This document shows positions 1-1,009 of a DNA stretch of 1,009 nucleotides, piece after piece. The stretch lies in NCBI RefSeq assembly GCF_003334335.1, contig NZ_QOWQ01000130.1. One strand, given 5' to 3'. Below the pieces are notes generated by a model. It was not told the origin of the DNA, searched no databases, and saw only the letters and a list, made by a program, of their open reading frames with translations. Each line of letters begins with the position of its first letter. The first letter of the stretch is position 1. This DNA is from Escherichia coli (GTDB taxonomy: Bacteria > Pseudomonadota > Gammaproteobacteria > Enterobacterales > Enterobacteriaceae). The position numbers were made by a program, and so were the translations under genes.

Positions 1-19
1 TAAAATTCGGAATTTCTTC

Positions 20-24
20 AGGAG
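20..24 (+). promoter_or_regulatory. Shine-Dalgarno (AGGAG) for the mini-ORF at 32..109
   Basis: AGGAG with a 7-nt spacer to ATG at 32. Confidence 0.3.
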
Positions 25-31
25 TAAGCTC

Positions 32-109
32 ATGAGAGCGGCGAGACATCAGATTTTCTTTATATATCCGATGTTGAGCTGTTTTATTTGTATACAGATA
101 ATTTTATAG
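32..109 (+). CDS. Hypothetical upstream mini-ORF, 25 aa (MRAARHQIFFIYPMLSCFICIQIIL); could be a leader peptide, a small hydrophobic protein, or non-coding
   Basis: ATG at 32..34 lies 7 nt after a canonical AGGAG at 20..24. The frame runs to TAG at 107..109. The peptide has a basic N-terminus and an 18-residue hydrophobic tail. The region is AT-rich, which biases any frame toward hydrophobic codons, so coding status is uncertain. Confidence 0.25.
   Translation: MRAARHQIFFIYPMLSCFICIQIIL
74..102 (+). promoter_or_regulatory. Candidate sigma70 promoter for the adhesin gene: -35 TTGAGC (74..79), 17-bp spacer, -10 GATAAT (97..102)
   Basis: -35 matches TTGACA at 4/6 and -10 matches TATAAT at 5/6, with optimal 17-bp spacing. 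Predicted start is near 109..110, giving a very short leader. AT-rich DNA produces promoter-like hexamers by chance, and the transcript may instead start further upstream. Confidence 0.3.
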
Positions 110-111
110 GG
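108..111 (+). promoter_or_regulatory. Weak Shine-Dalgarno-like AGGG for the adhesin start at 120
   Basis: AGGG with an 8-nt spacer to ATG at 120. It overlaps the TAG stop of the mini-ORF at 107..109. Confidence 0.3.
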
Positions 112-119
112 TATACCAC

Positions 120-200
120 ATGAGCAAGAAATTTACAAAGGCTGTTTTGTCTGCGGCAATGGCAGGTGTTTTGTTTGGGGTTAGCTTTGATATTATGGCT
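120..200 (+). other. Predicted Sec signal peptide of the adhesin (residues 1 to about 27; cleavage probably after ...SFDIMA or ...DIMAA)
   Basis: Basic N-region (MSKKFTK), hydrophobic core (AVLSAAMAGVLFGV), then a small-residue A-x-A-like site. Layout matches the YadA signal peptide. The exact cleavage position is uncertain by one or two residues. Confidence 0.7.
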
Positions 201-1009
201 GCTGGTGAGCAATCTTATTCTGCTTTAAATGCTCGGAATGAAGCTGGGAGTGTTTATAAAATATATTATAACCCAGATAATAAAACGGCACATATTGATT
301 GGGGTAGCTTAGGTGATGTGGTAAAAGAGCGAAATAAGCCGATTTCACTTCTCAGTAAAATAGATGTCAATGGTAATGTTACAATTACCTCCGCAGACGG
401 TTCAACAACATTTACTGTTTATGATAAAGAAGTTCATGATTTCATGAAGGCTGTGCCATTAAAGGCATTTGGTAACGGAGATTTACTGACAGAACAGAAT
501 ATCCGTGACCTGTACAACCGCGTTTCAGCAATCCAGCAGATGAAAACCAACGTGGGCCTGGATAAGTATGGAAATGTGGCTGCAACACCGGGTGAAATAA
601 AAGAATACATGTCTTTACAGAGCTATCTGGCAGGGGAAGCAGCTAACTCAACTATTGGCCTTGATAAAAACGGTAAGCTGACCGAGGATGAGAAGGACAT
701 TGTAACACCATTACGTATTAACGACGGTGTTGTGACTGTTGCGAATGAGCTTGATGCTCAGAAAGGCAAGCTTGATGCTCAGAAAGGCGAGCTTGATGCT
801 CAGAAAGGCGAGCTTGAAGCGCAGAAGCAAAATCTTGGTAAACTGACCACGCGTACCGACAAGATTGATGCTGCGGCTGCTGCAACAGCTGCAAAAGTCG
901 AATCCCGCACACTGGTTGGTGTGAGTTCTGATGGCACCCTGACCCGTGCAGAAGGTGCAAAGAACACCATTTCTGTTAACGATGGTCTGGTGGCCCTGTC
1001 TGGTCGTAC
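120..1009 (+). CDS. Trimeric autotransporter adhesin (YadA family), N-terminal part; probably an Eib-type immunoglobulin-binding protein. Partial: 3' end lies beyond the window.
   Basis: ATG at 120 is the first start after an in-frame TAA at 99..101, and the frame stays open for 296 codons to the window edge. It is absent from the supplied ORF track, presumably because it has no stop in the window. Translation begins MSKKFTKAVLSAAMAGVLFGVSFDIMAAGEQSYSALNARNEAGSVYKIYYNPDNKTAHIDWGSLGD... and ends ...VANELDAQKGKLDAQKGELDAQKGELEAQKQNLGKLTTRTDKIDAAAAATAAKVESRTLVGVSSDGTLTRAEGAKNTISVNDGLVALSGR. The N-terminus closely parallels the YadA signal peptide (MTKDFKISVSAALISALFSSPYAFA). Heptad repeats indicate a coiled-coil stalk. 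I recall Eib proteins (EibA/C/D/E/F/G) as having a very similar N-terminus, but this is memory, not a search result, so no gene symbol is given. Confidence 0.85.
   Translation, partial: MSKKFTKAVLSAAMAGVLFGVSFDIMAAGEQSYSALNARNEAGSVYKIYYNPDNKTAHIDWGSLGDVVKERNKPISLLSKIDVNGNVTITSADGSTTFTVYDKEVHDFMKAVPLKAFGNGDLLTEQNIRDLYNRVSAIQQMKTNVGLDKYGNVAATPGEIKEYMSLQSYLAGEAANSTIGLDKNGKLTEDEKDIVTPLRINDGVVTVANELDAQKGKLDAQKGELDAQKGELEAQKQNLGKLTTRTDKIDAAAAATAAKVESRTLVGVSSDGTLTRAEGAKNTISVNDGLVALSGR
747..830 (+). repeat. In-frame 21-bp tandem repeat, four units (three near-identical, one diverged), encoding heptads ELDAQKG / KLDAQKG / ELDAQKG / ELEAQKQ
   Basis: Units: 747..767 gagcttgatgctcagaaaggc; 768..788 aagcttgatgctcagaaaggc (one mismatch); 789..809 identical to unit 1; 810..830 gagcttgaagcgcagaagcaa (six mismatches). 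Unit 1 starts at codon 210 of the CDS, so each unit is exactly one heptad. Confidence 0.95.

Follow-up and report, generated by a model that had tools for sequence, protein, structure and literature searches.

The 1,009-nt stretch of Escherichia coli DNA analysed here (assembly GCF_003334335.1, contig NZ_QOWQ01000130.1; hereafter the window) carries, judging from its similarity to known genes, the leader and the N-terminal two-thirds of a new eibA-like allele of the Eib family, the immunoglobulin-binding trimeric autotransporter adhesins of E. coli. The content of guanine and cytosine (GC) rises along the window, and this gradient is probably the product of cassette mosaicism in a prophage-borne moron gene combined with an effect of protein composition. 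Morons, in the sense of Hendrix and Juhala, are extra genes of lambdoid phages, which differ in composition from the genes around them and carry a promoter and a terminator of their own. In the proposed mechanism, two conserved arms, an AT-rich one with leader and signal peptide and a GC-normal one with stalk and anchor, would flank interchangeable AT-rich heads. An AT-rich, allele-specific head cassette would have been joined near nt 440-500 by homologous recombination to a segment of other ancestry with a higher GC content at third codon positions (GC3), and the Ala/Thr/Gly-rich coiled-coil stalk would then lift GC via codon positions 1 and 2 (GC1 and GC2), with codon usage unchanged.

The window contains an open reading frame on the plus strand (120..1009), which starts with an ATG at position 120, is still open at the window end and comprises the 296 N-terminal codons of an EibA-like trimeric autotransporter; no frameshift was seen in its translation. 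Among named genes, the window is most closely related to eibA of prophage P-EibA (E. coli ECOR-9, GenBank AF151091), with 93.7% nucleotide identity over 92% of the window in a megablast search of phage records. Matches to the window were found in 27 of 5426 complete E. coli genomes (best 93.2% over the full length), and each of them falls under a gene annotated as "YadA C-terminal domain-containing protein". The best 120 matches in a search of 5.8 billion proteins were all E. coli proteins with a YadA C-terminal domain, the top identity being 94%; the exact partial protein of the window is absent from the record, and no match above 94% was found in any collection searched. The last 38 residues align with EibC, EibD and EibE at 78-82% identity. 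A Pfam scan of the 296 residues returned no domain below E = 0.001. By correspondence with a homologous locus (L002), the window ends about 388 nt upstream of the stop codon; PF03895, the YadA-type beta-barrel anchor present in all full-length relatives of 79-93% identity, would lie past this end. Homologous eib loci are designated by L-numbers, L001 being the AF151091 locus, and 19 full-length genes including eibA, eibC, eibD and eibE were compared. The window itself spans positions 1-1009, and its locus context was taken from homologues of 88.7-94.9% identity.

The GC counts in 60-nt blocks on which the initial annotation had based a rise along the gene could all be reproduced: they are 0.40 and 0.283 in positions 1-120, 0.283-0.45 in 121-480, 0.383-0.467 in 481-720 and 0.483-0.567 in 721-1009, and the GC content of the whole window is 0.43. 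Its reference value of about 51% for the core genome holds as well, as core E. coli genes flanking homologous prophages have a GC content of 0.515. The linear slope amounts to +0.208 GC per kb and is matched by one of 5000 base permutations (Spearman p=1e-4). A single-step model places the change at nt 502, where GC increases from 0.367 to 0.493, which was reached in one of 300 permutations. The Bayesian information criterion (BIC) is 1377.6 for the linear gradient, 1383.2 for the single step and 1385.9 for constant GC, and gradient and step fit about equally well. Measured against real sequence, the slope is noteworthy without being exceptional; more conspicuous is how AT-rich the 5' part is in absolute terms.

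The contributions of codon usage and protein composition were separated with a host codon table of 2503 codons from core genes adjoining homologous prophages (GC 0.515, GC3 0.549). The observed slope of 0.066 GC per 100 codons splits into 0.034 expected from the amino acids (52%) and a synonymous residual of 0.032 (p=0.008). Relative to host codon usage and given the amino acids, GC is lower by 0.10 in positions 204-479 and by 0.03 afterwards. GC1, GC2 and GC3 are 0.48, 0.36 and 0.25 in 204-503, 0.59, 0.34 and 0.46 in 504-791, and 0.67, 0.50 and 0.42 in 792-1007; leader, signal peptide and 5' head combined have a GC content of 0.37 and a GC3 of 0.25. A single GC3 step is best placed at nt 441 (25/100 vs 74/168, that is 0.25 to 0.44; Fisher p=0.0018), and a second GC3 rise was not found within the window (792-1007 vs 504-791, p=0.64). 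The head (204-503) has a GC3 far below the host value (p=2e-9), but GC3 also stays below the host in the GC-richer part, with 30/72 in 792-1007 (p=0.03) and 74/168 after the step (p=0.005). The stalk in the window likewise lies well below the neighbouring genes in homologous loci, whose GC3 is 0.648 for the tail genes and 0.607 for orf156 and eaaA.

The final increase in total GC from 0.465 to 0.527 (790-1009) occurs because the stalk, which is rich in Ala (17%), Thr, Gly and Leu, raises GC1 and GC2, not GC3. Since this part of the rise is driven by amino acids, total GC alone overstates how host-like the stalk is: the "stalk of host-like composition" in the initial annotation applies to total GC only, as the GC3 of 0.42 in 721-1009 is lower than that of the host (p=0.03). 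Could protein composition then account for the whole gradient? In such an account, the N, K, I, Y and F codons of the beta-rich head are AT-rich, the Ala, Gly, Thr and Arg codons of the coiled coil are GC-rich, and the gradient carries no historical signal. This would agree with the share of the slope that is expected from the amino acids, with the rise in 790-1009 being wholly one of GC1 and GC2, and with a linear trend that is clearest in GC1 (0.47 to 0.68, p=0.003) and marginal in GC3 alone (p=0.057). However, the synonymous residual and the GC3 step are both significant, the non-coding leader is equally AT-rich (0.345), and all full-length homologues attain a GC3 of 0.57-0.61 in their last quarter. 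Protein composition as the sole cause is thus largely refuted by the GC3 and residual tests and is held to be very improbable. A 5' translational ramp as the cause of the low GC3 was rejected, as the low-GC3 stretch extends over more than 100 codons and not over 10-15.

The synonymous step coincides with a change of ancestry. Piecewise BLAST against 11 loci revealed that nt 1 to about 190 also match alleles with unrelated heads (e.g., L009 with 96.8%), that nt 190 to about 790 match eibA-type alleles only, and that sequence is shared again from 789-906 onward, with 100% identity to L004, L005 and L006. Within the eibA-type alleles, nt 191-500 are nearest to L004, L015, L013 and eibA (88-90%; L002 85%, L003 80%), whereas nt 501-736 are nearest to L002 and L003 (97-99%); for nt 501-657, the identity with L002 and L003 is 99.4%, compared with 87-89% for the other alleles, eibA and L004 among them. 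Max-chi-square tests with four parent pairs placed breakpoints at 401-456, 371-456, 472-481 and 501-554, each of which was reached in 0 of 2000 permutations. The allele in the window is itself a recombinant, in which an eibA/L004-like 5' head (GC3 0.25) would be joined to an L002/L003-like segment (GC3 0.46) near nt 440-500. The zone holding both the breakpoint and the synonymous-site GC step spans 401..554 by max-chi-square and step fitting; it contains nt 441 and nt 502, the best positions of the GC3 and the all-base step, respectively. A uniform phylogeny along the gene, which would have spoken against the modular origin put forward in the initial annotation, was not seen; breakpoints in the alignment of homologues are significant, and the phylogeny changes along its length.

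The gradient is a property of the whole family. Total GC rises along the gene in 19 of 19 full-length homologues, including alleles with unrelated heads; their first quarter has a GC content of 0.31-0.43 and their last quarter one of 0.53-0.57, and the flanking 300 nt have 0.32-0.41 upstream and 0.51-0.53 downstream. When conservation depth was compared with GC in 100-nt bins over 11 loci, leader and signal peptide were conserved in nine of ten comparisons at a GC of 0.29-0.44, heads had a depth of 0-4 at 0.27-0.48, and the terminal block had a depth of 9-10 at 0.50-0.61. These alignments show that eib genes consist of three modules, namely a conserved AT-rich leader/signal peptide, variable AT-rich heads and a conserved GC-normal stalk/anchor. 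The modules also differ in their distribution: among the 5426 complete E. coli genomes, nt 1-190 (leader and signal peptide) occur in 120 places in 41 genomes at up to 99.5% identity, the head (204..503) in 11 places in ten genomes with a best full-length match of 90.4%, and the block 894..1009 in 95 places in 51 genomes, 20 of which carry it at >=99%. The single fusion of an AT-rich 5' module to a host-like stalk, as proposed in the initial annotation, therefore gives way to a three-module mosaic with many unrelated AT-rich heads. Chance compositional heterogeneity without meaning would be in line with the modest BIC difference between trend and constant GC, and with the steepness found elsewhere in the prophage and host loci, where 7% of the remaining 1009-nt windows have an absolute slope that is equal or greater. 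However, only one of 5000 permutations reaches the slope, the gradient is present in all 19 homologues, and eight of eight loci have their GC minimum in the same place. Chance is refuted by this recurrence throughout the family and retains next to no probability.

Several of these results count against mosaicism as the source of the gradient. The frequency of equally steep windows just mentioned is one of them; moreover, the synonymous level accounts for only about half of the slope, and the first GC3 step lies at a similar place in eibA-type alleles generally. Step and breakpoint may hence coincide because a hot spot of recombination exists where variable sequence gives way to conserved sequence, and not because DNAs of different composition were joined. 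In most Eib genes (L001-L019), GC3 steps up a second time and more sharply (from about 0.35-0.39 to about 0.60); the position, 354 nt ahead of the eib stop codon and outside the window, is common to them. This step is near the expected start of the membrane anchor, within the universally conserved Eib block that begins 492 nt ahead of the stop codon; it does not coincide with a breakpoint, so that composition does not always track recombination boundaries. Finally, a donor taxon for the AT-rich head was not found outside E. coli in a phmmer search of residues 29-181 (204-662) against 1.84 billion representatives; it returned only seven clusters (50% identity), in which every named member is from E. 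coli. In a tblastn search of 50,697 phage records, the head type of the window was found only in P-EibA. By these searches, the EibA-type N-terminal head domain is an extremely narrow family, for which there is no Pfam model.

These points bear most on mutation bias in place of fusion, in which the fast-evolving and weakly selected head and leader drift towards AT under the universal GC-to-AT bias of mutation, as accessory and phage-borne genes typically do, the conserved stalk and anchor stay GC-normal, and the gradient simply tracks constraint. It is the restriction of the head family to E. coli without a donor and the position of the second GC3 step inside conserved DNA that speak for it, together with the AT-richness of heads of unrelated sequence (GC3 0.20-0.35), a pooled GC3 of 0.36 in the variable passenger vs 0.53 in the conserved terminal block, and a GC content that follows conservation depth in 11 loci. 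However, the leader/signal-peptide module is AT-rich although it is highly conserved (up to 99.5% in 120 places), the breakpoint coincides with the GC3 step, and rare alleles in the head lack an excess of GC-to-AT changes (24 GC-to-AT vs 34 AT-to-GC, a polarisation that is confounded by recombination). As a full explanation, mutation bias is therefore considered unlikely, though it deserves more weight than the other alternatives to mosaicism. As part of the mosaic, the AT-richness of the head probably reflects the bias towards AT that is common in phage accessory DNA evolving quickly at low expression, to which a regulatory role may have added; drift and mosaicism are ranked above a single fusion because many unrelated heads are AT-rich and no donor was found. 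GC-biased gene conversion in homogenised arms was also considered and was rejected, as the equally homogenised leader arm is AT-rich.

In the homologous loci, eib genes are located in lambdoid prophages. Upstream of eib, every homologous locus with enough flank carries J, sometimes lom, a tail-fibre gene and a DUF4376/orf191 gene; downstream follow orf156, usually the S6-peptidase autotransporter gene eaaA, dinI and the junction between prophage and chromosome. In L002, the tail genes have a GC content of 0.52-0.62, the 681-bp intergenic leader 0.389, eib 0.477, orf156 0.535, eaaA 0.56 and the host genes 0.52-0.55. The 600-nt GC minimum (0.32-0.36) falls on the eib leader and 5' coding region in all eight loci of 12-25 kb (L002-L006 and L008-L010), and a continuous trough of about 1.2 kb with a GC of 0.36-0.40 covers the conserved leader and the 5' coding sequence. 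An AT-rich genomic background, which would have undermined the horizontal origin suggested in the initial annotation, is not seen in the homologues, whose flanks have a GC content of 0.52-0.62. The prophage association that it had assumed is borne out by all homologous loci with enough flank, and by extension from these homologues the window itself would lie in the late arm of a lambdoid prophage. Its modules are rare (10-51 of 5426 complete E. coli genomes). Taken together, breakpoints, context and rarity agree with prophage cargo and a modular mosaic; the foreign low-GC donor implied by a horizontal origin is hypothetical.

The trough could also have a regulatory basis, in that the AT-rich leader and 5' coding sequence may be kept as a platform for silencing of the H-NS type, which would be relieved by specific activators (IbrAB) or by conditions like 37 C and static growth. 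The extent of the trough and the conservation of the AT-rich leader across alleles are in line with this, and activation of eib genes by IbrAB was reportedly described by Sandt et al. (2002). However, the high-affinity H-NS motif TCGATAAATT was not found even with two mismatches (0 vs 1.2 expected by chance), the Eib literature searched contains no mention of H-NS, and regulation leaves the mosaic breakpoint unexplained; as the reason for the gradient, it is thought improbable. On mosaicism, recombination or G+C content, the same literature offers only a general remark on domain shuffling.

The preferred reading, a mosaic of cassettes in a moron gene, has close parallels in known systems. The window shares with eibA of P-EibA, a member of the Eib family (EibA, C, D, E, F and G), the leader, the putative signal peptide, the head type (N-terminal domain, NTD), heptad repeats and the conserved stalk; the neighbourhood of tail fibre, orf191/DUF4376, eib, orf156 and eaaA is common to eibA and the homologues, and the GC profile of eibA, with quarters of 0.40, 0.46, 0.53 and 0.56, is like that of the window. 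In contrast, the identity of the head proteins is only 80%, eibA is without the segment of about 27 codons at 658-736 and has three heptads vs four in the window, and from about nt 500 onward the window belongs to the L002/L003 lineage. Like a lambdoid moron, eib sits between conserved tail-fibre genes and the prophage end, has depositor-annotated stem-loops before and after eibA, eibC, eibD and eibE, and differs in composition from its neighbours, the 5' half of eib being the GC minimum of the prophage arm. Unlike in a typical moron, the compositional boundary lies inside the gene and not at its 3' end: only the 5' two-thirds deviate, and the 3' third has a GC content of 0.52-0.58 and resembles the surrounding prophage. 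The number of promoter-like matches in the window does not exceed chance expectation.

Domain shuffling, repetition and recombination have been described for the class of trimeric autotransporter adhesins (bioRxiv 10.64898/2025.12.25.695649), and EibA is built from a signal peptide, the NTD, a left-handed stalk, a saddle and an anchor (PMC12511318). With YadA and adhesins of the UspA1/UspA2 type, eib genes share a conserved C-terminal anchor, exchangeable heads or stalk segments and variable heptad numbers; what sets them apart from other modular trimeric autotransporters is that a difference in GC and a conserved, AT-rich non-coding leader additionally distinguish the units of exchange, and that the NTD fold of the head occurs in E. 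coli only. Nothing in the window departs from the known patterns of morons and modular adhesins.

How the cassettes are exchanged can be approached from the arrangement of the arms. Near-identical arms surround unrelated heads, and genomes contain several copies of the leader (median three, up to six), which argues for homologous recombination through the conserved arms. A more tentative proposal, which we consider possible but doubtful, is that co-resident eib prophages swap heads by gene conversion via these arms, with the GC contrast and the leader keeping cassettes silenced until they are activated. If this were true, exchange of head cassettes would vary adhesive and antigenic properties, similar to cassette variation in pilins or UspA. 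New in this analysis are a recombinant eibA-type allele and a quantified three-module build of eib genes (leader 120, head 11 and stalk 95 genomic places), and a GC gradient within a gene was resolved into two components, a step at synonymous sites that goes with a recombination joint and a rise due to amino acids alone. For studies of adhesion and serology, the head is the unit of variation; beyond such bookkeeping the importance is small, as the family is already known.

The three-module build would also explain why eib genes fragment in draft assemblies, in which hundreds of eibA-type alleles are present as pieces. The closest database proteins (P0001, P0002, P0006 and others) are often truncated on contigs of about 1 kb (944, 994 and 1158 nt), and the window end falls inside the universally conserved eib block. 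Draft assemblies thus seem to break at conserved eib modules, of which a genome has copies in several prophages, and the window is possibly a contig of this kind.

The mapped parts of the window all lie on the plus strand, apart from the breakpoint zone, to which no strand applies. At the very start, positions 1..16 correspond to the 3' arm of a stem-loop upstream of eib genes, the upstream moron boundary, according to the depositor annotation of AF151091 (3777-3814; window nt 1 corresponds to 3799). This arm, TTCGGAATTTC, pairs with GAAATTCCGAA immediately upstream of the window start in L001; eibC, eibD and eibE also have depositor-annotated upstream stem-loops similar to that of eibA. The AT-rich non-coding 5' leader (1..119, GC 0.345) is part of a conserved AT-rich upstream region of about 500 bp, is 97-100% identical among eibA-type alleles and is kept upstream of nine of ten other eib genes, even those with unrelated heads. 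An Rfam scan of leader and gene in L001 yielded no family, and a scan of the window for sigma-70 promoters and terminators gave counts at chance level, the best -10 element being too near to the ATG. A possible weak ribosome-binding site, AGGG (108..111), can be read 8 nt before the ATG. The putative signal peptide MSKKFTKAVLSAAMAGVLFGVSFDIMAA (120..203, GC 0.417) has a basic N-terminus, a hydrophobic core and an AxA-like end, and together with the leader it would constitute the first conserved module. In strain G1/2 (L007, 4900-5511), the upstream leader cannot be aligned to the other ten, has a higher GC content (0.40-0.52) and is followed by a different signal peptide, MNKKFTKTILSAAVAGLFLAGNAFA; the leader module is hence also exchangeable.

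The AT-rich 5' part of the head (NTD) cassette covers 204..503 (GC 0.362, GC3 0.25) and is followed by an intermediate-GC segment of the L002/L003 type, which comprises the 3' head and the N-terminal stalk (504..791, GC 0.465, GC3 0.46). Within it, allele alignment revealed an in-frame segment of about 27 codons (658..736) whose presence varies: it is found in L002, L003 and L012 (96-97.5%) and absent from eibA, L004 and L013-L016. The segment, which includes TIGLDKNGKLTEDEKDIVTPLRINDGVV, resembles the preceding stretch starting with VGLDKYGNVAATPGE and may be an internal duplication. A 21-nt tandem repeat at 747..826 (Tandem Repeats Finder, TRF: period 21, 3.8 copies, 93% matches) encodes the coiled-coil heptads LDAQKGK/LDAQKGE/LDAQKGE/LEAQKQN; there are four heptads in the window vs two to three in 11 homologues, so that stalk length varies with the copy number of the repeat. 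The Ala/Thr/Gly-rich stalk segment with the peak of total GC occupies 792..1007 (GC 0.527; 17% of residues are Ala), and the block conserved across all Eib genes, the third module, begins at 894 (894..1009), where the alignment with EibC, EibD and EibE starts; it is 100% identical in L004, L005 and L006, which have unrelated heads. An AlphaFold2 monomer model from an alignment of 38 sequences had a mean pLDDT of 50.6 and was left out of any statement on folds, fold search or the head/stalk boundary.

Two further observations concern the surroundings of eib genes. In NCTC9112 (L015, 1-1156), an IS21-family element, ISEc12 (istA/istB), sits within the AT-rich leader region some 460 bp ahead of eib, where it stands in place of the usual tail-fibre and DUF4376 genes. 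The gene eaaA (SPATE-like, S6 peptidase, about 4 kb) follows eib and orf156 in most loci; it is split in L007 and missing in L008, L009 and PhiR5_1, where dinI is directly next, and the two autotransporter morons are thus only variably linked.

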